64,000 bases of DNA, taken from NCBI GenBank assembly GCA_027494135.1, contig JAOSJK010000001.1:163378-227377 (forward strand). Direction: 5' to 3'. Made by a program: the position numbers and the translations under genes. Under the pieces are notes generated by a model. That model ran no database searches. It was not told where the DNA came from and was given only the letters and a program-made list of their open reading frames with translations. This stretch comes from Acidimicrobiia bacterium (lineage in GTDB: Bacteria; Actinomycetota; Acidimicrobiia; IMCC26256; PALSA-610). Of the stretch, positions 48,292 to 61,854 are shown one piece after another. How positions within the stretch are numbered: position 1 is the first letter of the stretch; each line of letters opens with the position of its first letter.

Positions 48292-49823
48292 ATGGCCACG
48301 GAGTTCGATTTCGCTCTCGACCAATCCGTAGTACGGCGGCTGGGTCTCGAACGCGAGGTGGTCGACGCTGCCGCGCGCGACAGGGCGACGGAGCGCCTGC
48401 GCGACCTCGACGTCGTCCTGCCCACCTTCGCCGAGCTACGCGACCCGGCGACGATGTCGGCCCATCGCCGCGCTCCGGCTCGCAGGCATCGACCACGATG
48501 CCCCCCATGCCGCCAACCTCTTGAGGGTCCACTGGCACAACGGCCCGGGCGGTGCCGGCCCGCTCGACGTACCAGAGCACGTCGTCTTGGGTCCCGAGAT
48601 CACCGGCGTCGAGGCCCCCGTGGTCGTGCTGCTCGGCGACCGCTTCCCCATGATCGGTGCGCACAAGGTGCTCGCGGCCTACTCGTGCCTGGTGCCACGC
48701 CTGGTGACCGGCCAGTTCGACCCCACCCGCCACCGGGCCGTATGGCCCTCGACCGGCAACTACGCCCGCGGCGGTGTGGCGATCTCACGCATCATGGGCT
48801 GCCGTGGCGTGGCAGTTCTGCCCGAGGGCATGAGTCGCGAGCGCTTCGAGTGGCTCGAACGCTGGGTGACCGATCCGGCCGACATCATTCGCACGCCCGG
48901 CTCCGAGGCCAACGTGAAGGAGATCTACGACGAGTGCGCCCGCCTCGAAGCGGACCCGGACAATGTCGTCCTCAATCAGTTCTGCGAGTTCGGCAACCAC
49001 CTGGCGCACTACGCGATCACCGGTACCGCTTGTGAGCGTGTCGCCGACCACCTGATCGGGCGCGGAATCGGCGGACGAGTGGCGGCCTTCGTGTCTGCCT
49101 CGGGATCTGCGGGCACCATCGGTGCCGGCGATCGGCTGAAGGAGAGCCACGGCGCACGCATCGTCGGCGTCGAAGCGCTGGAGTGCCCGACGATGCTCGA
49201 GAACGGCTTCGGCGACCACAACATCCAGGGCATCGCCGACAAGCACATCCCGCTGATCCACAACGTGATGAACATGGATCTGGTCACGGCCATCTCCGAT
49301 CGCGCCACCGACGACCTGAATGTGTTGCTCCAGTCGGATGCCGGGCGATCCATGCTGTCGGAGCGCGGCGCTTCCGACGAGGTGATCGCCCACCTCGACG
49401 ACTTCGGGCCGTCGGGCATCTGCAACCTCCTGGCAGCGGCACGCACCGCCCGGTACCTGCGCCTTGGGCCCGAAGACCTGGTGATCACCGTGGCCACCGA
49501 CGCCGCGCCGCTCTACGCGTCCGAGCGAGAACAGACGCTGCAGCAGCGCTTCTCCGACGGGTTCGACGATGCGGCAGCACGCGAGGTGTTCGCCCGCCAC
49601 GTCCTGGGCCTGGGCACCGAGGACCTCATAGAGTGCACCGAGCGTGAGCGACGGAGGATCTTCAACCTCGGCTATTTCACGTGGGTCGAGCAGCAGGGCA
49701 CCCCACTCGACCTCTTCGTTGCCCGACGTGAGCAGGGAGTTCTGGCGCGGCCTGCGGCCGCTCCTAGGCGACTGGGACGAGCTGATCGTCGACATGAACG
49801 CGCGCATCGGCCTCGATCACTGA
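48292..49823 (+). pseudogene. fold-type II PLP-dependent enzyme (cysteine synthase/TrpB-like superfamily, long form), frame broken twice
   Basis: [20 protein letters not shown]... is in the frame of ORF 48196. ...[13 protein letters not shown]...[12 protein letters not shown]... is in ORF 48521..50074. The C-terminal part is [28 protein letters not shown]. Switches are near 48468 and 49735. Confidence 0.7.
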
Positions 49824-49827
49824 GCTC

Positions 49828-51357
<1,530 letters not shown>

Positions 51358-51382
51358 CATTTTGTTGAATCCCCACCACGCT

Positions 51383-53959
51383 GTGGGGGTGCAGCCCACC
51401 ACAGAGTTCGCCTGCAACGGTCGAGCCGTCAAGGTGCGCTCCAACCACCCGCACCTGCTCGCTGCACTGCGCGACGAGCTCGACATCACCTCTCCGAAGG
51501 ACGGCTGCTCACCGGCCGGGCAGTGCGGCTGCTGCACGGTGCTGATCGACGGCAAGGCGCGCGTCGCTTGCCAGACGTCGATCGAGAAGGTCGCCGGGGC
51601 CGAGGTCGTGACGCTCGAAGGCCTCGATCCCGACGAGCGCGCCCTCTTCGCTCGCACCTTCGCCGCCCACGGTGCACTCCAGTGCGGTTTCTGCACGCCA
51701 GGGATCATGATCCGGGCCAGGGCGCTGATCGACGCCGACGGCGCCGACCTCGACCGAGACAAGGCCGCCCGCCATCTCGGCGGGCACCTCTGTCGATGCA
51801 CCGGCTACACGAAGATCCTCGACGCGATAGAGGACATCGCCGCAGGTAAGGTCGTCGAGCCGAAGACAGTGGGCCCCATCGGCACGCGCGGCTCGCGCTA
51901 CCAGGCCATCAACCTCGCGCTCGGTACGAAGGACTACGTCGACGACATACGCATCGAAGGCATCCTTCACGGAGCGCTGCGCCTGACCGACCACGCCCGG
52001 GCCGACGTCGTGCGCATCGACACCACTGCGGCCCTGGCACTCGGCGGCGTGCACGCGGTGTACTGCGCAGCCGACGTGCCCGGCGAGTTGCGCGTCGGGA
52101 TCATCCATCGCGACTGGCCGGTCTTCATCCCCGAGGGTGGTCGCACCTCCTACCTGGGCGACGTGCTCGCGATCGTCGTCGCCGACGATCGCGAGACTGC
52201 GCGGCGCGGCGCCGGCCTGGTCGAGGTCGAGTACCGGCCGCTCCCTCCGGTGACCGACGCAGAGACCGCCCTCGATGCCGACGACGCCGTCTGGGGCATC
52301 GAGGGCAATCTGCTGTCGCGCTCCGCATACACGCGCGGCGACGTGGACGGCGCGCTCGCCGCGTCGGCCCACATCGTCCACGACATCTTCAAGACCCAGC
52401 GGGTCGAGCACGCGTTCCTGGAGCCCGAGTCGACCCTGGCCGTGCCTCGTCCCGACGGGACGCTGAAGGTGTACTCCGGCGGGCAGGGCGTCTGGGACGA
52501 CCGCGACCAGATCGCCTCGATCATCGACGTCCCCAAGTCAACCGTCGAGGTCGAGCAGGTCTCCAACGGCGGGGCGTTCGGCGGCAAGGAAGACATGAGC
52601 AACCAGGGCCAGACCGCCCTGGCCGCTCACCTGCTGGGCAGGCCCGTCAAGTGCACGCTCTCCCGCGAGGAGTCGTTCCTCATGCACGCCAAGCGGCACC
52701 CAATCCGCGTCGAGGTCTGGGCCGGCTGCGACAAGAGAGGCCTCCTCACCGGTCTGCGGGCGCGCCTCCTGGGCGATTCCGGGCCGTACGCCTCGGTCGG
52801 GATGAAGGTGCTGGAGCGGGCTGCGGGCCACATGGGCGGCCCCTACTCCTGGCCCTCGATGGACGTCGAGGCACTGGCCGTTCGCACCAACAACAGCGTC
52901 TGCGGGGCGTTCAGAGGCTTCGGCGCCAATCAGGCGCAGTTCGCCACCGAGGGTGTGATGGACCGGCTCGCCGAGGCGCTGGGCATCAGCGGATGGGAGA
53001 TGCGCGAACGCAACGTGATCGAGCCCGGCGCGCTGTGGGGTCCCGGGCAACCGATGGACGAGGGCTGCCGCGGGGCGCGCGCCTGTCTCGAAGCCGTACG
53101 CGACGCTTACGAGGGCGCCCGCGCCGCGGGCAAAGCTGTGGGCCTGGGACTAGCACTCAAGAACTCGGGGCTGGGCAACGGTTTTCTGGAGACGGCCCGG
53201 GCGGTCGTGCGCTTCGAGCCCGACGGCACCGTCGAGGTGAGGCACTGCTGGACCGAGATGGGCCAGGGTGTGCACACCGTCGCGATACAGGTGGCGGTGG
53301 AGGAGCTCGGCGTGGAAGCCGGCCGGATCAGGGTCGTGGTCGACACGACCCGCGAGCTCGGAGCCGGCCAGACAACCGGTTCGCGCGGGACGCTGATGAG
53401 CGCCGGCGCGATCGCCGCGGCCTGCCGCGAGGCGCGCGCAGACGGCTGCCGCACCGGGGTCGACTACGAGGGCGAGTACCGGGTCGACTGGACCAACGCG
53501 ATGGAGGACGGTGTAGAGGCGCCGATCCTCCACTCGGCTTTCGGATACGCGGCGCAGGTCGTGATCTGCGACGCGACCAGCGGTCGAATCGAGCGGGTCG
53601 TGGCCGCCCACGACGTCGGCCGGGCCGTCAACCCCGACCTCTGCGAGGGCCAGGTGCAGGGCGCCGTGCACATGGGCCTCGGTTACGCGCTGTCCGAGGA
53701 GTTCCCCTGCGACGAGCAGGGCCGTCCCACCAATATGACACTGCGCAGCCTCGGGATCCTGCGGGCCAAGGACATGCCCGAGGTGGACGTGATCCTCGTG
53801 GAGGTTCCCCAACCGAGGGCGCCGTACGGGATCAAGGGTGTGGGCGAGATCGGCCTGGTGCCGACGGCGGGAGCGGTCGCCGCCGCGCTGTGGGCTTTCG
53901 ACGGCCGCTGGCGCACGAAGCTTCCCCTTGCCCCGGTCCGGGCGGTCGCCCGGCCGTGA
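51383..53959 (+). CDS. fused [2Fe-2S] plus molybdopterin-binding hydroxylase (XdhD-like, no FAD domain)
   Basis: GCSPAGQCGCCTVLIDG...QCGFCTPGIMI...CRCTGYTKI, then the Moco domain ...GGAFGGKED...FRGFGANQ...GIKGVGEIG. The GTG start at 51383/51389 was chosen after the upstream stop. Confidence 0.85.
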   Translation: MGVQPTTEFACNGRAVKVRSNHPHLLAALRDELDITSPKDGCSPAGQCGCCTVLIDGKARVACQTSIEKVAGAEVVTLEGLDPDERALFARTFAAHGALQCGFCTPGIMIRARALIDADGADLDRDKAARHLGGHLCRCTGYTKILDAIEDIAAGKVVEPKTVGPIGTRGSRYQAINLALGTKDYVDDIRIEGILHGALRLTDHARADVVRIDTTAALALGGVHAVYCAADVPGELRVGIIHRDWPVFIPEGGRTSYLGDVLAIVVADDRETARRGAGLVEVEYRPLPPVTDAETALDADDAVWGIEGNLLSRSAYTRGDVDGALAASAHIVHDIFKTQRVEHAFLEPESTLAVPRPDGTLKVYSGGQGVWDDRDQIASIIDVPKSTVEVEQVSNGGAFGGKEDMSNQGQTALAAHLLGRPVKCTLSREESFLMHAKRHPIRVEVWAGCDKRGLLTGLRARLLGDSGPYASVGMKVLERAAGHMGGPYSWPSMDVEALAVRTNNSVCGAFRGFGANQAQFATEGVMDRLAEALGISGWEMRERNVIEPGALWGPGQPMDEGCRGARACLEAVRDAYEGARAAGKAVGLGLALKNSGLGNGFLETARAVVRFEPDGTVEVRHCWTEMGQGVHTVAIQVAVEELGVEAGRIRVVVDTTRELGAGQTTGSRGTLMSAGAIAAACREARADGCRTGVDYEGEYRVDWTNAMEDGVEAPILHSAFGYAAQVVICDATSGRIERVVAAHDVGRAVNPDLCEGQVQGAVHMGLGYALSEEFPCDEQGRPTNMTLRSLGILRAKDMPEVDVILVEVPQPRAPYGIKGVGEIGLVPTAGAVAAALWAFDGRWRTKLPLAPVRAVARP

Positions 53960-54976
53960 GCGGTGCGATGACCCCGGGACTGGTGTGCGGTCACCACCAC
54001 CTCTACTCGACGCTGGCGCGCGGCATGCCCGCCCCGTCGCGGACCCCAACCCGGTTCACCGAGATACTCGAGTCGGTGTGGTGGCGCCTCGACGCCGCGC
54101 TCGACCTCGAGATGGTCCGGTGGTCTGCGCTGCTCGGCGCGGTCGAGGCGCTCGAGCGAGGCACCACCGCGATCATCGATCACCACTCCTCGCCCAACGC
54201 CGTCGAAGGCTCTCTGAGTGTCATCGCAGACGCCTGCGCAGAGGTGGGTGTGCGTGCTGTCTGCGCCTACGAGGTCACCGATAGGCACGGACCCGACGGC
54301 GCCCGCCGGGGCCTGGAGGAGAACGCCCGCTACCTGTCGGAGGGCGGGCGGGGTCTGGTCGGCGCGCACGCCTGCCTGACGCTTTCCGACGAGTCGCTCG
54401 ACGCCGTCGCCGGGCTCGCACGCGACCACGGCGTCGGCGTGCACGTTCACGTGGCCGAGGACCGGACCGACGCCGACGCCGGCGCCCGCCTGGAGCCCCA
54501 CGCGACGCCCGACTGGCTCCTCGCCCACGCGGTGCACCTCGACCGTGACCTGCCCGGCACCATCGCCCACAACCCCCGCTCCAACATGAACAACGCGGTC
54601 GGCTACGCGCGACCGGCACGCCGACCTAACCGGGTCGTGCTCGGTACCGACGGCATCGGGGCCGACATGCTCGAGGAGTTCCGCTTCGCATACGCGCGCC
54701 TGCGCGAAGACGACGTGACCGCGACCCCCCGACATCGCGTGGGCCTGGCTCGAGCACGGCCGCGACCTCGTACCCGAGGCCGCCGAGGACGAGGTCGTTT
54801 GGTTGTACGAACCGATGGATCCATGGCACCTCGCGTACACCCCCGGAGTCGGCCCGGTCGAGGTGCGCGTCGACGGTGAGGTCGTGCTCGCGAATGGGCG
54901 CCCGACACGCGTCGACGTGCACGAGATCCGGGCCCGCGCCCGGGAGGAGGCAATCCGCCTGTGGCAACGCCTGTGA
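53956..54976 (+). pseudogene. SsnA-like amidohydrolase (putative aminohydrolase), frame broken once
   Basis: LVCGHHHLYSTLARGMP...HVHVAED...HNPRSNMNNAVG is in the frame of ORF 52651..54879. The C-terminal part, DIAWAWLEHGRDLV...[10 protein letters not shown], is in another frame. The switch is at the C6 run 54725-54730. Confidence 0.75.
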
Positions 54977-55989
54977 ACGAACGAGTCGCCCTCTACCTTC
55001 AAGACGCCCACCCGATTCGCGAGGGGATCCGCTACGCGGCGTACGCAGAGGAACGCGGCTTTGCCGCCGTCTGGCAGGCCGAGAGCCGCCTCGTGCGCGA
55101 GGCGACGGTGCCCATGGCCGCCTACCTCTCCCACACGCAGCGCATCCGTGTCGGCTCGGGCGTGATCAACAACTGGACACGCAACGTCGCGCTCCTCGCC
55201 TCCACCTTTGCGACTCTCGACGACCTCGCGCCCGGTCGGGTCATCCTCGGCATCGGCGCGTGGTGGGACCCGCTGGCCGCCAAGGTTGGCATCGACCGGT
55301 TAAGGCCGCTGCGGGCGATGCGCGAGACCGTGGAAGTCGTTCGGGCGCTGCTCGCCGACGAGACCGTCACCTACCGCGGCGAGTTCGTGAACCTCGACGG
55401 TGTTGAGCTCGACTACGTGCACCAGGAGCGCCGGCCCAAGGACGTCCCCATCTACATCGGAGCCACGGGAATGAAGATGATGGAGCTCACCGGTGAGATC
55501 GCCGACGGCGCGCTGCTCAACTACCTGGTCTCGCCCCGATACAACGAGCAGGCAATGGAGCATCTCGAGAGCGGCGCGCTACGCGCCGGCCGCCACGCCG
55601 AAGACCTCGACCGTCCGCAGCTAGTGGTCTGCTCGCTCGACGACGACCGCGACCGGGCTCTCGACGCGGCACGCTTGCTCGTCACGCAGTACCTAGGCCA
55701 GCAGCCGCACATCATGAAGGCCTCGGGGGTGCCTTCCGCGCTCGTCGAAGAGATCGGATCCGTGCTCACGTGGCCCGCCTCGCACGAGCAGATCGAGGCC
55801 GCAGCACGGCTCGTGCCCGACGAGGTGGTGCAGATGATCACAGCTTCGGGAACACCTGACGAGTGCCGCGCCAAGGTGGACGAGTACCTCGCTGCTGGGG
55901 CGACCTGCGCGGTGCTCTACCCGCTCGGAGACGACGTAGAGGCGATGATCGACGCGTTCGCGACCGCGACGGGCGGGGACGCCGGGTGA
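54973..55989 (+). CDS. LLM-class (luciferase-like) flavin/F420-dependent oxidoreductase
   Basis: ...[16 protein letters not shown]...[13 protein letters not shown]...ILGIGAWW...[24 protein letters not shown]. Confidence 0.8.
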
Positions 55990-57383
55990 GCGCGCCGGAC
56001 GGCCTCGCCGCGGCGGGCCCGGTCGACCTGCTGGTGCGAAGCGCCGATCTGCTGGTCACGATGGATGACCAACGGCGCGAGATCTCCAGGGGCTGGGTGG
56101 CCGCACACGGCGGCGCGGTCGCCGCGGTTGGCCTTCCGGGTGAAGAGCCCGAGGCGACCCAGGTGATCGATGCGCACGGCTGCCTGGTCACCCCGGGCCT
56201 GATCAACACCCACCACCACATCTACCAGAACCTCACGCGCGCGTTCGCTCCCGCGCTCGACGGCGATCTCTTCCAATGGCTGCAGACGCTGTATCCGATC
56301 TGGACCCGACTCGACGAGGAGGCCGCACATGTGTCGACCTGGATCGGGTGTGTAGAGCTCGCGCTGGGCGGATGCACCACCACCATGGATCACCTTTACG
56401 TGCACCCACGCGGTGCCGGCGACCTGATTACAGCCGAGATCCGCGCGGCCGGCGAGGTGGGCCTGCGATTCCACGCGACACGCGGCTCGATGAGCCTGTC
56501 CGCGAAGGACGGCGGCCTGCCACCCAACTCGGTGGTGCAGGACGACGACGAGATCCTCGCCGACTCGGAGCGACTGGTCGCCATGCACCACGACCGCTCC
56601 CCCGGCGCCATGGTGCAGGTGGCGCTCGCACCCTGCTCGCCGTTCTCCGTCACTCCGCAACTGATGCGAGCGACGGCCGAGTTGGCGGAGCGCCTCGACG
56701 TGCGACTCCACACCCACCTCGCGGAGACCGCCGAGGAGGACGCGTACTGCCTCGAGCACTTCGGACGTAGACCGATCGAGCACTTCGAGGAGTGCGGGTG
56801 GGGTAGCGACCGGGCGTGGGTGGCGCACATGGTGTGCCCCGACGACGGCGAGATCTCGAGGCTCGGTGCATGGGGTACGGGAGTGGCGCACTGTCCCAGC
56901 TCCAACATGCTCATCGGTGCCGGGCTCTCGCCGGTGGGCGAGCTGCGCGCCGCCGGGGTGCCGGTGGGTCTGGGGTGCGACGGCTCGGCCTCGACCGACT
57001 GCGCCTCGCTGTGGATGGAGGCCCGCAACGCACTTCTGGTCGGCCGGCTCCGCAATGGAGCGTCGTCGATGCGGGCCCGTGATGCGCTGGAGATGGCCAC
57101 TCGCGCGGGAGCGACCTGCCTGGGGCGCGACGGTGAGATCGGCGTGCTCGCTCCCGGCGCCTGCGCCGACCTGGTTGTCTGGCCACTCGAGGGCGTCCAG
57201 TTCGCCGGGGCGTTGAGCGACCCGCTCGAGGCGTGGCTGCGCTGCGGACCGGTCGCGGCACGCCACACCGTCGTCAACGGCAGGCTCGTCGTCGCCGACG
57301 GCGAACCGACGCACCCGCACGTGTCCGAGATGCTCGATCGTCACCGGGCGATCGCGACCCGATGGCAACAGGTGGCTTCATGA
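55986..57383 (+). CDS. 8-oxoguanine deaminase-like amidohydrolase (cog0402)
   Basis: [20 protein letters not shown]...LHTHLAET...VAHCPSSNM...[10 protein letters not shown]. Confidence 0.8.
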
Positions 57384-58239
57384 GCGTAACGATTCCCGAG
57401 GAGCTCGACGACGTGCTCGACCTGCTCGACGAGCGGCCGGCGACCCAGCTCCTCGCCGGAGGCACCGACTTCATGGTCGAGGTCAACTTCGGCCACCGTC
57501 GCCCGAGCGAGATCTGCGCTCTGCGCCGCGTCGACAAGCTGACGCAACGGCGGCGCGACGGCGACGACCTGGTCCTCGGGGCCATGACGACGTATCGCGA
57601 AATGGAGCACGGCAGTCACGCCGGCGGCGACCTCGACCTCGCAGCTCTCGCTCCGGCGCTGGCCCAGGCCGCGCGCACGGTCGGGTCCCCCAGATCCGCA
57701 ACGTCGGCACCATCGGTGGCAATCTGGGTACTGCCTCGCCCGCAGGCGACACGCTGCCGGTGCTCGCCGCGCTCGACGCCCGGGTCGTCGTCGCATCCAA
57801 GGGAGAGCGACACGAGGTAGCGATCGAAGACTTCTTCACCGGGCCCAAGCGCAGCGCCCTGAGACCGGGCGAACTGATAGCCGAGGTGCGCCTTCCCGTC
57901 CGGCGGGGACCGCAGGAGTTTCTCAAGGTCGGGGCGCGCAACTCCATGGTCATCTCGGTGTGCAGCCTCGCCCTCGTCATCGACCTCGACGGCCGTCGGG
58001 TGAGCTGCGCGCTCGGGTCGGTCGGCCCGACCGTGTTGCGGGCGTCCGCCGCCGAGCAGCGCGCCGAGGCTGAGATCGACTGGCGGACGGGCCGCCTTGG
58101 TGATCCGGACTTCGCCGTCGAGTTCGGTCGCCTCGTGGCCGCCGAGGCGTGCCCGATCGACGACCACCGATCGACCGCCGGGTACCGGCGTCATGCCATC
58201 GGGGTCCTCGCCGAACGAGCTCTGAGGAGGACGTCGTGA
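57380..58239 (+). pseudogene. molybdenum hydroxylase FAD-binding (CoxM/XdhB-like) subunit, frame broken once
   Basis: LLAGGTDFMVEVNFG... is in the frame of ORF 57233..57820. ...IRNVGTIGGNLGTASPAGDTLPVLAALDARVVV... leads into ORF 57760..58239. The switch is at the C5 run 57687-57691. Confidence 0.8.
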
Positions 58240-58751
58240 ACGACGAACCGACAAGTCATGCCGTGACACCCGAGGTCGGCTACGTGCTGCGCGTCAACGG
58301 GCGCGAGCACCGGATCGAGGCCGCATGGTCGGGCGAGAGCCTCCTCTGGGTGCTGCGCGAGCGGCTGGGGCTCTCGGGCTCCAAGAACGCCTGCGAACAG
58401 GGCGAGTGCGGCTCCTGCTCGGTGCTGGTCGACGGCCGGCTCGTCTGCGCGTGCCTCGTCCTGGCGGCATCGGCGGTCGGGGCCGAGATAACCACCGTCG
58501 AGGGCGCCAGTCCACAGGGCGTGCTCACCGACGTGCAGAGCGCGTTTCTCGCCGAGGGTGCGGTGCAGTGCGGGTTCTGCACACCAGGGCTGGTCATGTC
58601 GGTGCACGACCTTCTCAAAGCGAACCCAGAGCCCGACGATCTCGAGGTGCGCGAAGCGATCTCGGGAAACCTCTGCCGGTGCACGGGATACGGGCGCATC
58701 TTCGCCGCCATCGAGAACACGGTCGCAGCGCGTCGCGGGGCTGAGTCGTGA
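58236..58751 (+). CDS. [2Fe-2S] small subunit (CoxS-like)
   Basis: CEQGECGSCSVLVDG...QCGFCTPGLVM...CRCTGYGRI. Confidence 0.9.
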   Translation: MNDEPTSHAVTPEVGYVLRVNGREHRIEAAWSGESLLWVLRERLGLSGSKNACEQGECGSCSVLVDGRLVCACLVLAASAVGAEITTVEGASPQGVLTDVQSAFLAEGAVQCGFCTPGLVMSVHDLLKANPEPDDLEVREAISGNLCRCTGYGRIFAAIENTVAARRGAES

Positions 58752-61045
58752 GCACGCGCGACGGCGGTCTGTCTCTCCTGCGACGAGCGAGCCGCGTCGG
58801 CGAGAACGCGCCCCGACCCGACGGCACCCTCAAGGTGCGCGGTGAGTTCGCGTACTCGTCCGACCTCTATGCCGAGGGCATGCTGTGGGGCGCAACTGTG
58901 CGCTCGACGGAGGTGCATGCCCGCATCTGTTCGGTCGACATCTCGGGCGCCCTCGCCACGCCGGGAGTGCACGTCGTCGTCACCGCCGACGACGTGCCCG
59001 GCTCACCCTACTACGGACTGGACGGGGACGATCAACCCGTCTTCGCGTCTGCAGTGGTGCGCCACCTCGGCGAACCTATCGCCGCCGTCGCCGCCGACCA
59101 TCCGGAGGCGGCCCGTCTGGCGGCGTCGCGCGTGGTCGTCGAGTACGAGCCACTCGCACCGTTGCTGGACCCCGAGCGGGCACTCACCGCCGAGCCGATC
59201 CATCCCAACGGAAACCTGTTCCGCCACCTGCCGATCCGCAAGGGTGACCCGGACGCAACCGGAGACGTCGTCGTCGAGGGGAGCTACGCCACCGGCATGC
59301 AGGACCAGGCCTTTCTCGGCCCCGAGTCAGGGCTCGCGATACCCGACTCCGGCGGCGACGGAGTGGAGCTGTTCATCTCGACACAGTGGCTGCACGTGGA
59401 CCGCGACCAGGTCGCGGCCTGTCTCGGCCTCGAGCCGGAGAGAGTGCGCCTCACGCTGTCGGGCGTAGGTGGCGCCTTCGGCGCCCGCGAAGACATCAGT
59501 CTCCAGGTTCACCTCTGCATGCTGGCGCTGCGTGCCGGTCGTCCGGTGAAGATGGTCTACAACCGCGCCGAGAGCTTCTTCGGTCACGTTCACCGCCACC
59601 CGTCGCGTCTCTGGTACCGCCACCACGCGGACCGCGACGGAACGCTCGTGAAGGTGGAGGCCCGGTTGCTGCTCGACGGCGGCGCGTACCTGTCGTCGTC
59701 GTTCCACGTGCTGGGAAACGCGGCATCGTTCGCGGTCGGCCCCTACCGGGTTCCCAACGTGGTCATCGACTCTTGGAACGTCCGTACCAACAACCCTCCC
59801 TGCGGGGCGATGCGCGGATTCGGCGTCGTGCAGTCGTGCTTCGGCCACGAGGCGCAGATGGACAAGCTCGCTGCGGCGCTCGGCCACGACCCAGTCGAGC
59901 TGCGGTTGCGCAACGCGCTCGGGCACGGCGACACATGCGCGACAGGGCAGCGGATCACCGGCACGTTGCCGATGGCCGAGGTGATCGCCCGCACCGCCGC
60001 GCTGCCGCTGCCGCCCGAGCTCACCGAGCACACGCCGATGCTGGCACTGCCCGGCGGGGCGGGCCGGTGCGCCGACCGGAGCCGGGTTGTGCGCGGCGTC
60101 GGCTTTGCCGCGAGCTACAAGAACCTCATGTACGCCGAGGGCTTCGACGACTTCTCAACGGCCCGCTGCCGCATCGACCACGGCGTCGTCACCGTGCACT
60201 GCGCCTGCGCCGAGGTAGGCCAGGGCTTCGTCACGCTGGTCTGCCAGATCGCCCGCGAGGTCCTGCGCATCGATGACGTCGTGGTAGCGCCGGCCGACAC
60301 CGTCGAGGTGGGCTCTGCCGGGTCTACCTCGGCGAGTCGACAGACGTGGATGTCCGGTGGCGCCGTCGAAGCCGCCTGCATCGCGGCACGCGACCGCGTC
60401 ATCTCCGAGCTGGCCCTTCGGTCTGGCGTCGAGGTCGCGTCGCTTGTACTGGTCGACGACCGCGTCGTGTCGGGCGACGGTCGCGTCGACACGACCATGA
60501 CCGAAGCCGCCGCTGGGCTCGTCGTGGACGAGACCCGCGAGTTCCATCACGCACCCACGCAGCCGCTGGACGAGAACGGGCAGGGTGACGCCCACGTTTC
60601 CTTCTCGGGCACCGCCCACCGCGCCGTCGTCGACGTTGACCTCGACCTCGGTCTGGTGCGGGTAGTTCAGATCGCCACCGCGCAGGACGTGGGACGGGCG
60701 CTCAATCCACTAGCGGTCGGCGGGCAGATCGAGGGCGGCGTGGCCCAGGGTGTCGGGCTTGCGGTGATGGAGGAGATCGTGGTGGACGGCGGGCGGATCC
60801 GAAACGCCTCGTTCACCGACTACCTGATCCCGACCGCGCTCGACATGCCGGAGGTGGTGTGGGACTTGATCGAGGAGCCCGAGCCCGGCGCGCCCTTCGG
60901 CGCCAAGGGCGTGGGCGAGCCCCCGGTGGTGTCGTCGACCCCAGCCGTGGTGGCGGCGATCAGGGCCGCCACCGGCCTCGCTCTCGATCGGGTACCAGTG
61001 CGGCCGCAGGACATCGTGCGGGGTCGCGCTTCGACAGCCACATGA
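58748..61045 (+). CDS. molybdopterin-binding large subunit (CoxL/XdhA-like)
   Basis: 765-aa intact ORF. ...GVGGAFGAREDIS...MRGFGVVQ...FGAKGVGEPP. Confidence 0.9.
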   Translation: MSTRDGGLSLLRRASRVGENAPRPDGTLKVRGEFAYSSDLYAEGMLWGATVRSTEVHARICSVDISGALATPGVHVVVTADDVPGSPYYGLDGDDQPVFASAVVRHLGEPIAAVAADHPEAARLAASRVVVEYEPLAPLLDPERALTAEPIHPNGNLFRHLPIRKGDPDATGDVVVEGSYATGMQDQAFLGPESGLAIPDSGGDGVELFISTQWLHVDRDQVAACLGLEPERVRLTLSGVGGAFGAREDISLQVHLCMLALRAGRPVKMVYNRAESFFGHVHRHPSRLWYRHHADRDGTLVKVEARLLLDGGAYLSSSFHVLGNAASFAVGPYRVPNVVIDSWNVRTNNPPCGAMRGFGVVQSCFGHEAQMDKLAAALGHDPVELRLRNALGHGDTCATGQRITGTLPMAEVIARTAALPLPPELTEHTPMLALPGGAGRCADRSRVVRGVGFAASYKNLMYAEGFDDFSTARCRIDHGVVTVHCACAEVGQGFVTLVCQIAREVLRIDDVVVAPADTVEVGSAGSTSASRQTWMSGGAVEAACIAARDRVISELALRSGVEVASLVLVDDRVVSGDGRVDTTMTEAAAGLVVDETREFHHAPTQPLDENGQGDAHVSFSGTAHRAVVDVDLDLGLVRVVQIATAQDVGRALNPLAVGGQIEGGVAQGVGLAVMEEIVVDGGRIRNASFTDYLIPTALDMPEVVWDLIEEPEPGAPFGAKGVGEPPVVSSTPAVVAAIRAATGLALDRVPVRPQDIVRGRASTAT

Positions 61046-61854
61046 GGTCCGGCACGTCTTCGTTCGCCGGCTCGGAGGGCCGCGTCGCCTATCGCTGGTG
61101 GCGGCCTGCCGGAGTGGTTCGTCGCCTCGTGGTGGTGGTGCACGGCTACGCCGAGCACGGGGGACGCTACGCCCACCTCGCCGAGCACCTCGTGGGACAT
61201 GACGCGGCCGTCTACGCACCCGATCACCTAGGCCACGGTTTCTCCGATGGAGAGCGGGCTCTGATCGCCGACTTCGAGCACGTGGTCGACGACCTCGAGA
61301 CGCTTGTCGAGATCGCTCGCGCCGAGCCCGACATCGGCGCTGCGCCGCTGGTCGTGATCGGCCACTCGATGGGTGGCCTTCTCTGCGCACGCTTCGCCCA
61401 GCGCAACTCCGACGCCGCAGCCGGACTGGTGTTCCTCGGTGCCGTGCTCGGCGACTGGCCCTGGGCTCGCGAGGTGCTGGCACTACCGGAGCTGCCCGCC
61501 GTGGACAGCGACCCCTACGGGATGAGCCGCGACCTCGAAGTCTGCCGGACCTACGCCGACGATCCCCTCGTGTACCACGGGACCTACCGCCGCGAGCTGC
61601 TCGAGGCCGAGGTGGCCTGCCTCGATCGCATGCGTTCGGAGCTCGGCCGCGTGACCGCTCCGGTCTTGTTCCTCCACGGCGCCGAGGACCCGTTCGTGCC
61701 GTACGGACCGTCGCTCGCGGCGGTACAGGGCATGGCCTCGCGCGACGTGACCGAGAAGCTCTACGCGGGAGCGAAGCACGAACTCGTCAACGAGACGAAC
61801 CGCGACGAGGTCATGGCCGACGTCGCCAACTTCGTCGAGCGCGTCACGTGCTGA
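61042..61854 (+). CDS. alpha/beta hydrolase (lysophospholipase / monoacylglycerol lipase-like)
   Basis: VVVHGYAEHGGRY...VIGHSMGGL...LHGAEDPFVP...AKHEL. Confidence 0.8.
   Translation: MRSGTSSFAGSEGRVAYRWWRPAGVVRRLVVVVHGYAEHGGRYAHLAEHLVGHDAAVYAPDHLGHGFSDGERALIADFEHVVDDLETLVEIARAEPDIGAAPLVVIGHSMGGLLCARFAQRNSDAAAGLVFLGAVLGDWPWAREVLALPELPAVDSDPYGMSRDLEVCRTYADDPLVYHGTYRRELLEAEVACLDRMRSELGRVTAPVLFLHGAEDPFVPYGPSLAAVQGMASRDVTEKLYAGAKHELVNETNRDEVMADVANFVERVTC

Follow-up and report, generated by a model that had tools for sequence, protein, structure and literature searches.

Gene content of the array

The 64,000-nucleotide stretch considered here (the window; positions 163,378 to 227,377 of contig JAOSJK010000001.1, assembly GCA_027494135.1, from an Acidimicrobiia bacterium) has a G+C content of 70% and carries on its plus strand, at 48292-61854, an array of ten closely packed genes, g1 to g10, whose products probably form the upper half of a reductive uric-acid, or 2,8-dioxopurine, pathway in an F420-using variant. 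Genes were delimited by frame analysis and stop-to-stop open reading frames (ORFs), and families were assigned by Pfam and NCBIfam/TIGRFAM profile searches against curated cut-offs (Table 1; labels beginning with L and C denote loci and contigs in our numbering, C1 being the contig named above). An earlier sequence-only reading had described a co-directional cluster of nine genes at 48292-61045, mostly overlapping by 4 nt. Its direction, gene order and families hold, as do the overlaps, since 4-nt GTGA/ATGA overlaps occur at g3/g4, g4/g5, g5/g6, g6/g7, g7/g8, and g8/g9. However, frame switches interrupt four of the nine genes, and a tenth, g10, is start-coupled to g9 via ATGA, which makes seven overlapping junctions in total. 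A promoter and terminator scan found no plus-strand terminator-like site between the array genes and nothing usable to define operon limits. With g3 as query, species-representative genomes yielded 80 related loci, ~70% identical and nearly all from Acidimicrobiia metagenome-assembled genomes (MAGs); g10 has a homologue in only one of them and is therefore probably a local passenger.

The same reading likened the cluster to the ygfK-ssnA-ygfM-xdhD region of E. coli, which it called unresolved. The XdhD/SsnA likeness was the right lead, but the region is in fact accounted for: two 2025 papers established it as the reductive uric-acid/2,8-dioxopurine pathway, with clusters known from E. coli and Clostridium sporogenes/C. 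difficile (Li et al., 2025, PMC12507026; Liu et al., 2025, bioRxiv 10.1101/2025.04.24.650524). XdhD, or clostridial XdhAC (DOPDH), converts urate to 2,8-dioxopurine, YgfK (DOPOR) or UacX reduces the ring of this product, SsnA opens it, and HyuA, YgeW/YqeA (or UacY), YgeY, and YgeX lead on to pyruvate and ammonia, the sequence from XdhD/DOPDH to YgeX having been established in vitro (PMC12507026; bioRxiv 10.1101/2025.04.24.650524). The pathway was described for anaerobes, as a selenium-dependent trait of gut bacteria. YgfK in E. coli is an Fe-S flavoenzyme; clostridial DOPDH has FeS and Moco (molybdenum cofactor) domains and no FAD subunit, its Moco part comprising residues 307-839. For SsnA neighborhoods of Chloroflexota, an F420 luciferase-family enzyme was noted instead of YgfK (2025 pathway paper, Fig. 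3c and Discussion).

The g3 protein scores 807.2 bits with TIGR03311 (‘Se_dep_XDH’; cut-off 830.45), the next family reaching 449 bits, and contains the Pfam domains Fer2_2, Ald_Xan_dh_C, and MoCoBD_1/2 but no FAD domain. It keeps the xanthine dehydrogenase (XDH) catalytic Glu (GGKE), Arg (RHP), and Glu (GVGE) of purine hydroxylases. Because identity to E. coli XdhD is only 24% and the insert bearing XdhD Glu606 is missing, g3 is best placed, on sequence grounds, with the TIGR03311/clostridial type rather than the enterobacterial type. Glu606 was itself rejected as a DOPDH signature; the insert in which it lies is missing from both g3 and XdhA, so the residue cannot classify g3. By analogy with the 2025 pathway papers, g3 most likely runs as a dehydroxylase, from urate to 2,8-dioxopurine, which speaks against the two hydroxylations supposed in the sequence-only reading.

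Next to it, g4 is 38% identical to residues 54-331 of E. coli SsnA and, at ~340 aa, is missing the first ~55 residues of that protein; its orthologues are short too. The g4 fragment scores 249.7 bits and an intact orthologue 264.8 bits with the SsnA family (NF005540; cut-off 444). As this orthologue of 350 aa covers only model positions 58-340, g4 represents a short SsnA subfamily. By analogy, g4 is proposed to be the ring-opening hydrolase.

The genes g6 to g9 would supply urate. The g6 product exceeds the 8-oxoguanine deaminase cut-off (NF006055, 603.4 bits; cut-off 532), and homologues with at least 45% identity occur in 13 of the 80 related loci. The g9 product passes the PucD family cut-off (TIGR03196, 816 bits; cut-off 783.65), and its partner subunits are present in g7 (FAD_binding_5 and CO_deh_flav_C) and g8 (Fer2/Fer2_2; 48% identical to E. 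coli XdhC). The trio, labeled CoxM, CoxS, and CoxL in the sequence-only reading, is thus a PucC/E/D-type xanthine dehydrogenase and not a CO dehydrogenase. Compared with XDH, both Moco subunits of the array retain the Glu/Arg/Glu residues, in g9 within GARE, RHP, and GVGE motifs.

The array opens with two pyridoxal phosphate (PLP) enzymes, PALP1 and PALP2. PALP1 has helical extensions at both the N- and the C-terminus; the AlphaFold model of an orthologue (P0011; pLDDT 90.4) found its best PDB matches in CysK, beta-cyanoalanine synthase, and CBS (target TM ~0.8), and the fold search returned only such generic CysK/CBS matches, with nothing matching the terminal extensions. PALP1 has at least 8000 family members, whose annotations go no further than cysteine synthase or PLP-dependent enzyme. 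PALP2, remotely threonine-synthase-like, directly follows PALP1 in 23 of the 24 loci obtained with PALP1 as query. That the pair acts on a beta-substituted alanine intermediate, e.g., diaminopropionate or 3-ureidoalanine, is only a guess, for which beta-elimination or beta-replacement would be the most natural chemistry. A simple replacement of YgeX by the pair is not supported, since the pair coexists with a true diaminopropionate ammonia-lyase both here and in L127.

Conservation and the proposed reductase slot

Among the 80 related loci, g4 lies directly 3′ of g3 in nearly all. The clustering is a conserved one: at least four loci (L060, L069, L079, and L080) bring all nine families together within 20 kb, and L010 matches the order of g3 to g9 seen here. 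Recurrent neighbors include a CN-hydrolase (34/80), an M20 enzyme of the allantoate-amidohydrolase type (24/80), and a diaminopropionate ammonia-lyase (11/80), together with a BMP-type ABC transporter, an HTH_22 regulator, adenine deaminase, an OTCase-type carbamoyltransferase, and XDH accompanied by a g6-like deaminase.

The gene after SsnA is where these loci differ. Here it is g5, which matches PF00296 at 234.9 bits; its 16 best NCBIfam matches are all F420-dependent luciferase-family (LLM) groups, none above cut-off, and among solved structures g5 is closest to Mer (E ~6e-42 over the full length), with FGD and Adf next. The genome encodes cofD (326 bits; cut-off 257) and therefore makes F420. 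No YgfK was found in the cluster, and the best match in the genome is a GltD/YgfT-like gene at C1:664 kb. In the 60 related loci that extend at least 3 kb beyond SsnA, 33 carry only the LLM gene, 23 carry only a YgfK homologue, four carry neither, and none carries both; each of the two genes, where present, starts right after SsnA. The YgfK homologue is a true member of its family (TIGR03315, 912.9 bits; cut-off 835.3). A pair of sister loci, L021 with YgfK and L023 with LLM, differs at the reductase slot only. On a tree of g3 orthologues, LLM loci and YgfK loci separate into two clades and at least two changes of state are needed, which points to few replacement events rather than 56 independent ones. 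These observations and the analogy with the 2025 pathway papers suggest that g5 is most likely an F420-dependent 2,8-dioxopurine ring reductase standing in place of YgfK. Although its own locus is of the LLM type, g3 sits at the base of the YgfK-type clade, and its terminal branch in this tree of 60 orthologues is long (0.4 vs. a median of 0.08); the length may reflect sequence errors or a third switch between LLM and YgfK.

Genome-level co-occurrence was assessed in a sample of 401 Actinomycetota genomes. A short SsnA-like gene is present in 39 of them. Orthologues of g5 (at least 68% identity) occur in 29, of which 28 also carry SsnA, and PALP1 occurs in 24, all of which carry SsnA, compared with 15 of the 377 genomes that have no PALP1. 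Within the Acidimicrobiia of this sample, no genome had PALP1 but no SsnA, nor the reverse. In other lineages, MAGs labeled as Deltaproteobacteria, Armatimonadota, Nanopelagicales, and other actinobacteria have the PLP pair next to a short amidohydrolase, a fused FeS-Moco gene, and two carbamoyltransferases; some of these neighborhoods also contain a carbamate kinase, an LLM gene, or a HyuA-like gene. The F420 swap as such is already in print, as a prediction for Chloroflexota made without positional or phylogenetic analysis. This locus adds the alternation of LLM and YgfK at one slot within one actinobacterial class, down to sister loci that differ, and a genome-level tie to SsnA that is near-exclusive for both the LLM enzyme and the PLP pair. 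It further adds an SsnA of short form, the failure to find HyuA and selenium markers, and an aerobic, environmental host.

The proposed lower half of the pathway

Searches by tblastn and profile scans located the lower-half genes beyond the window, 8-18 kb past g10 (L081:7516-18397, equivalent to C1:232893-243774; Table 1). Their diaminopropionate ammonia-lyase (L081:14232-15333; C1:239.6-240.7 kb) scores 337.2 bits with NF006058 (cut-off 276) and is 35% identical to E. coli YgeX. The CN-hydrolase and the allantoate-amidohydrolase-type M20 carbamoylase are predicted to be analogous ureido-cleaving enzymes; orthologues of YgeW, YqeA, UacY, and YgeY were not found at the locus, the best YgeW/YgeY matches elsewhere in the genome being 27-28% identical. 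Since decarbamoylation and the ammonia-lyase step are encoded beyond the window, the nine genes do not amount to the complete breakdown that the sequence-only reading envisaged. Upper and lower halves are contiguous in relatives such as L064 and L037; here they are separated by an operon for a Psr/Nrf-type molybdoenzyme, a sulfopyruvate-decarboxylase-like gene pair, and an aldehyde dehydrogenase gene.

Part of the separating DNA (L081:4665-7639, window-equivalent 66665-69639) encodes the alpha/beta pair, which resembles sulfopyruvate/phosphonopyruvate decarboxylase, and the aldehyde dehydrogenase, which is of succinate-semialdehyde type and frameshifted; both adjoin the molybdoenzyme operon. 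A second, collinear lower sub-cluster, running from aldehyde dehydrogenase through CN-hydrolase, is present on contig C18 (L082; 13085 bases). Its DNA, with numerous frame switches, is ~75-77% identical to that of C1; either the sub-cluster is paralogous, or C18 comes from a related organism and was binned with this MAG.

Table 1. Genes of the array (window coordinates) and of the lower half (contig coordinates, prefix C1)
Feature	Position	Strand	Family or best match
g1, PALP1: CysK-like fold-type II PLP enzyme, ~500 aa	48292..49823	+	PF00291
g2, PALP2: threonine-synthase-like PLP enzyme, N-terminal Cys-rich ribbon	49828..51357	+	PF00291
g3: fused 2Fe-2S and molybdopterin hydroxylase, DOPDH/XdhAC-like	51383..53959	+	TIGR03311
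g4: short SsnA-like amidohydrolase	53956..54976	+	best family SsnA, NF005540
g5: Mer-like luciferase-family (LLM) oxidoreductase, probably F420-dependent	54973..55989	+	PF00296
g6: 8-oxoguanine-deaminase-family amidohydrolase	55986..57383	+	NF006055
g7: FAD subunit of xanthine dehydrogenase, PucC/XdhB/CoxM type	57380..58239	+	PF00941, CO_deh_flav_C
g8: 2Fe-2S subunit, PucE/XdhC/CoxS type	58236..58751	+	Fer2, Fer2_2
g9: molybdopterin subunit of xanthine dehydrogenase, PucD type	58748..61045	+	TIGR03196
g10: alpha/beta hydrolase	61042..61854	+	weak lysophospholipase-type matches only
Lower half: BMP substrate-binding protein, TRZ/ATZ amidohydrolase, ABC ATPase, two permeases	C1:232.9-243.8 kb		
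Lower half: diaminopropionate ammonia-lyase, HTH_22 regulator, small Thiamine_BP-like protein, M20 carbamoylase, CN-hydrolase	C1:232.9-243.8 kb		

Interpretation and comparison with known systems

We consider it likely that the array is the upper half of a reductive urate pathway in which an F420 enzyme fills the reductase slot; all substrates are predicted, as are the direction in which g3 runs and what the PLP pair does. In the proposed scheme, g6 and the XDH formed by g7-g9 would convert guanine-type bases, hypoxanthine, and xanthine to urate, g3 would remove the C6 oxygen of urate to give 2,8-dioxopurine, g5 would reduce the ring of this compound with F420H2, the job of YgfK in E. coli, and g4 would open the reduced ring. 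The CN-hydrolase, M20 carbamoylase, and diaminopropionate ammonia-lyase would then take off the ureido groups and turn the C3 skeleton into pyruvate and ammonia, with g1-g2 probably acting on the beta-substituted alanine intermediate. The XdhD/SsnA-type core supports the sequence-only proposal that purines are broken down here otherwise than by the textbook oxidative urate pathway, as does the failure to find the oxidative-route marker HIU hydrolase in this genome. Its suggestion of a pterin or other heterocycle as substrate received no specific support.

As XDH and g3 share an operon, a redox-neutral conversion of xanthine to 2,8-dioxopurine is conceivable. A bolder extension, possible but doubtful, is that aerobic, environmental actinobacteria run a selenium-free version of this ‘anaerobic-type’ route, where electron exchange between XDH and g3 would isomerize xanthine to 2,8-dioxopurine without an external low-potential donor, F420H2 would enter via g5, and the PLP pair, as a new two-enzyme module, would complete the route by a beta-elimination that acts on diaminopropionate or 3-ureidoalanine, either in place of YgeY and YgeX or in addition to them.

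Several observations weigh against assigning the array to the reductive urate pathway. The g3 protein falls just under the TIGR03311 cut-off (807.2 vs. 830.45 bits) and is distant from XdhD, whose Glu606-bearing insert it lacks; g4, a short form, misses the SsnA cut-offs. The mutual exclusion of LLM and YgfK arose from about two evolutionary switches, so that the loci are less independent than a Fisher p-value implies. In family f6 of the Acidimicrobiia (L118, L120-L122, L124-L126, and L128-L131), the PLP pair stands far from the XdhD-SsnA core among housekeeping genes, heading an array with ClpP, a ComM/Mg-chelatase-like ATPase, DprA, and XerC, near RNase PH, RdgB, and MurI. No gene in the genome passed the HyuA cut-off (TIGR02033, 393 bits; best 256.7 bits, on contig C7), and HyuA is not among the conserved neighbors in related loci, which leaves one ring opening without an assigned enzyme. 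The host has an aa3-type oxidase, while the published pathway was described for anaerobes. Finally, of the markers for the selenium cofactor that the gut-bacterial enzymes require, neither SelD (best 27 bits) nor YqeB turned up in this genome, which is 77.5% complete.

Two substitutes for HyuA were considered and rejected, the TRZ/ATZ amidohydrolase near the transporter, which is conserved in only one of the 80 loci, and a pyrC gene beside pyrB on contig C12, which belongs to pyrimidine biosynthesis. At C7:405-11101, a three-subunit Moco hydroxylase (FeS, FAD, and Moco) lies beside two hydantoinase/dihydropyrimidinase-like genes; it may be a pyrimidine or hydantoin module and is the genome's sole candidate for the missing HyuA step.

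With respect to selenium, 34 of 38 SsnA-bearing relatives have SelD and one has YqeB. SelD is found in 273 of the 401 genomes of the phylum sample, and its profile is therefore uninformative on selenium dependence; an approach through phylogenetic profiles was abandoned with SelD too common and YqeB almost absent. In that sample SelD often has an in-frame TGA (selenocysteine-containing SelD), and selenium use was commoner than expected for the phylum. Dependence on a selenium cofactor, the defining trait of the gut enzymes, is not evident here.

Separate units might simply lie side by side, with g6-g9, an ordinary XDH plus deaminase, serving purine salvage or oxidation, g3-g5 acting on a substrate of their own, and g1-g2 having a housekeeping-type role unrelated to purines. 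The three modules do shift in position and orientation between loci, the PLP pair or XDH is found within 10 kb in only about a quarter of XdhD loci, and in f6 the pair sits between ClpP, ComM, DprA, XerC, and RNase PH. We nevertheless hold this arrangement to be unlikely. SsnA accompanies PALP1 in every PALP1-bearing genome of the sample (24/24) and is rare in the rest (15/377), and the pair adjoins FeS-Moco and SsnA-like genes in Deltaproteobacteria- and Armatimonadota-labeled MAGs and in four further actinobacterial lineages. In the array itself, each start codon overlaps or closely follows the preceding stop codon and no internal terminator intervenes, and XDH yields urate, the starting substrate of the published pathway.

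Another heterocycle, such as a pterin, a nicotinate-type compound, or an 8-oxoguanine derivative, would be an improbable substrate for g3-g4-g5, which on this account resemble the urate enzymes but degrade that compound by hydroxylation, reduction, and hydrolysis. That 23 related loci have a bona fide YgfK after the same g3-g4 pair argues against it, as do the purine-specific neighborhoods (PucD-type XDH, adenine deaminase, a BMP nucleoside-type transporter, ureido-cleaving enzymes, and diaminopropionate ammonia-lyase) and the purine-hydroxylase Glu/Arg/Glu triad that g3 keeps. In its favor, both g3 and g4 score under their family cut-offs, the nearest structures to g5 are of Mer, which acts on a pterin, and selenium markers were not found; the family of g6, in the cog0402 group, includes pterin-type deaminases as well.

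Decay of the cluster, with six real frameshifts and four pseudogenes, has the six frame switches within 12.7 kb in its favor but is barely credible given the state of the assembly, a draft MAG (77.5% complete, 4.1% contamination) in which a codon-usage model trained on the genome's long ORFs was applied by Viterbi segmentation to all 3.93 Mb. The switches lie at ~48461 and ~49722 in g1, ~50818 and ~50944 in g2, ~54725 in g4, and ~57682 in g7, so that g1 and g2 are each read in three frames. The segmentation found 1309 candidate same-strand frame switches without a stop codon genome-wide; a stricter filter left ~0.35 per kb of coding sequence, evenly spread (about one indel per 3 kb). Switch density in the cluster equals that of the genome, and rpoB (C1:1464604-1467929) is itself in four pieces, in frames 1/2/1/3 and hence with three switches, while gyrB and ctaD (C1:46915-48443) are also split across frames. 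All six cluster sites are at runs of 3-6 C or G bases, where genome-wide candidates are also enriched (29% have a run of five or more bases within 20 nt, compared with 5.9% of random coding positions). The true frames contain no in-frame stops or deletions, and orthologues align end to end across the switches. For g1, the PALP1 orthologue of L060 aligns over residues 1-46 and 47-471; for g7, orthologues align over residues 1-103 and 97-270, and PF00941 positions 4-99 and 99-169 are matched in two frames; in g2 the PF00291 match is divided into positions 8-189 and 240-295 in separate pieces. Because of the genome-wide rate, the equally split rpoB, and the C/G homopolymers at all six sites, the cluster frameshifts are assembly indel errors and not gene decay; the pseudogene account was rejected on the whole-genome segmentation together with the rpoB, gyrB, and ctaD checks. 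Any claim of split genes or pseudogenes in this genome must be judged against this indel baseline.

If the assignment to the reductive urate pathway is right, its core extends widely through the Acidimicrobiia and further environmental lineages (~10% of the 401-genome actinobacterial sample). This distribution, the O2-respiring hosts, the F420 swap, and the failure to find selenium markers suggest an environmentally important route of nitrogen and carbon recycling, and also that the chemistry of the pathway can run on different cofactors. The predicted F420-dependent 2,8-dioxopurine reductase and the short SsnA, whose role is likewise predicted, are targets for enzymology. A possibly selenium-independent DOPDH would be of interest for urate-lowering biocatalysts that work in air, and the PLP family of at least 8000 members without known function is a further target.

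Compared with the clusters of E. coli and Clostridium, the array has in common a Moco enzyme closest to the TIGR03311 type next to an SsnA-like hydrolase, a proposed ring-reductase slot, and an XDH predicted to feed urate, and a YgeX-type lyase and ureido-cleaving enzymes are encoded in the genome, adjacent in relatives. It differs in having a Mer-like F420 LLM enzyme rather than YgfK or UacX, an SsnA of only ~340 aa, and an extra PLP pair, with a CN-hydrolase and an M20 enzyme in place of YgeW/YqeA and YgeY; HyuA, SelD, and YqeB were not found, and the host has an aa3 oxidase and belongs to an environmental actinobacterial class. Judged from the published description, g3 shares the architecture and size of clostridial DOPDH/XdhAC, likewise with no FAD subunit. 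The g7-g9 trio resembles PucABCDE of Bacillus subtilis in its separate FAD, 2Fe-2S, and Moco subunits, its Glu/Arg/Glu residues, and a passed PucD equivalog cut-off; the order here, however, is FAD-FeS-Moco, PucA/PucB maturation genes are missing from the cluster, and the trio lies within a putative reductive-pathway operon, whereas Puc belongs to a uricase/allantoinase regulon. For g5, the closest known system is Mer (PDB 8qq8, 1z69, and 1f07), which it resembles over its full length and within the same TIM-barrel LLM class, although g5 does not reach the Mer family cut-off (195.7 vs. 276 bits). Both would be hydride-transfer enzymes acting on an N-heterocycle, a role that is predicted in the case of g5, with Mer working in the context of C1 metabolism and g5 in that of purine catabolism.

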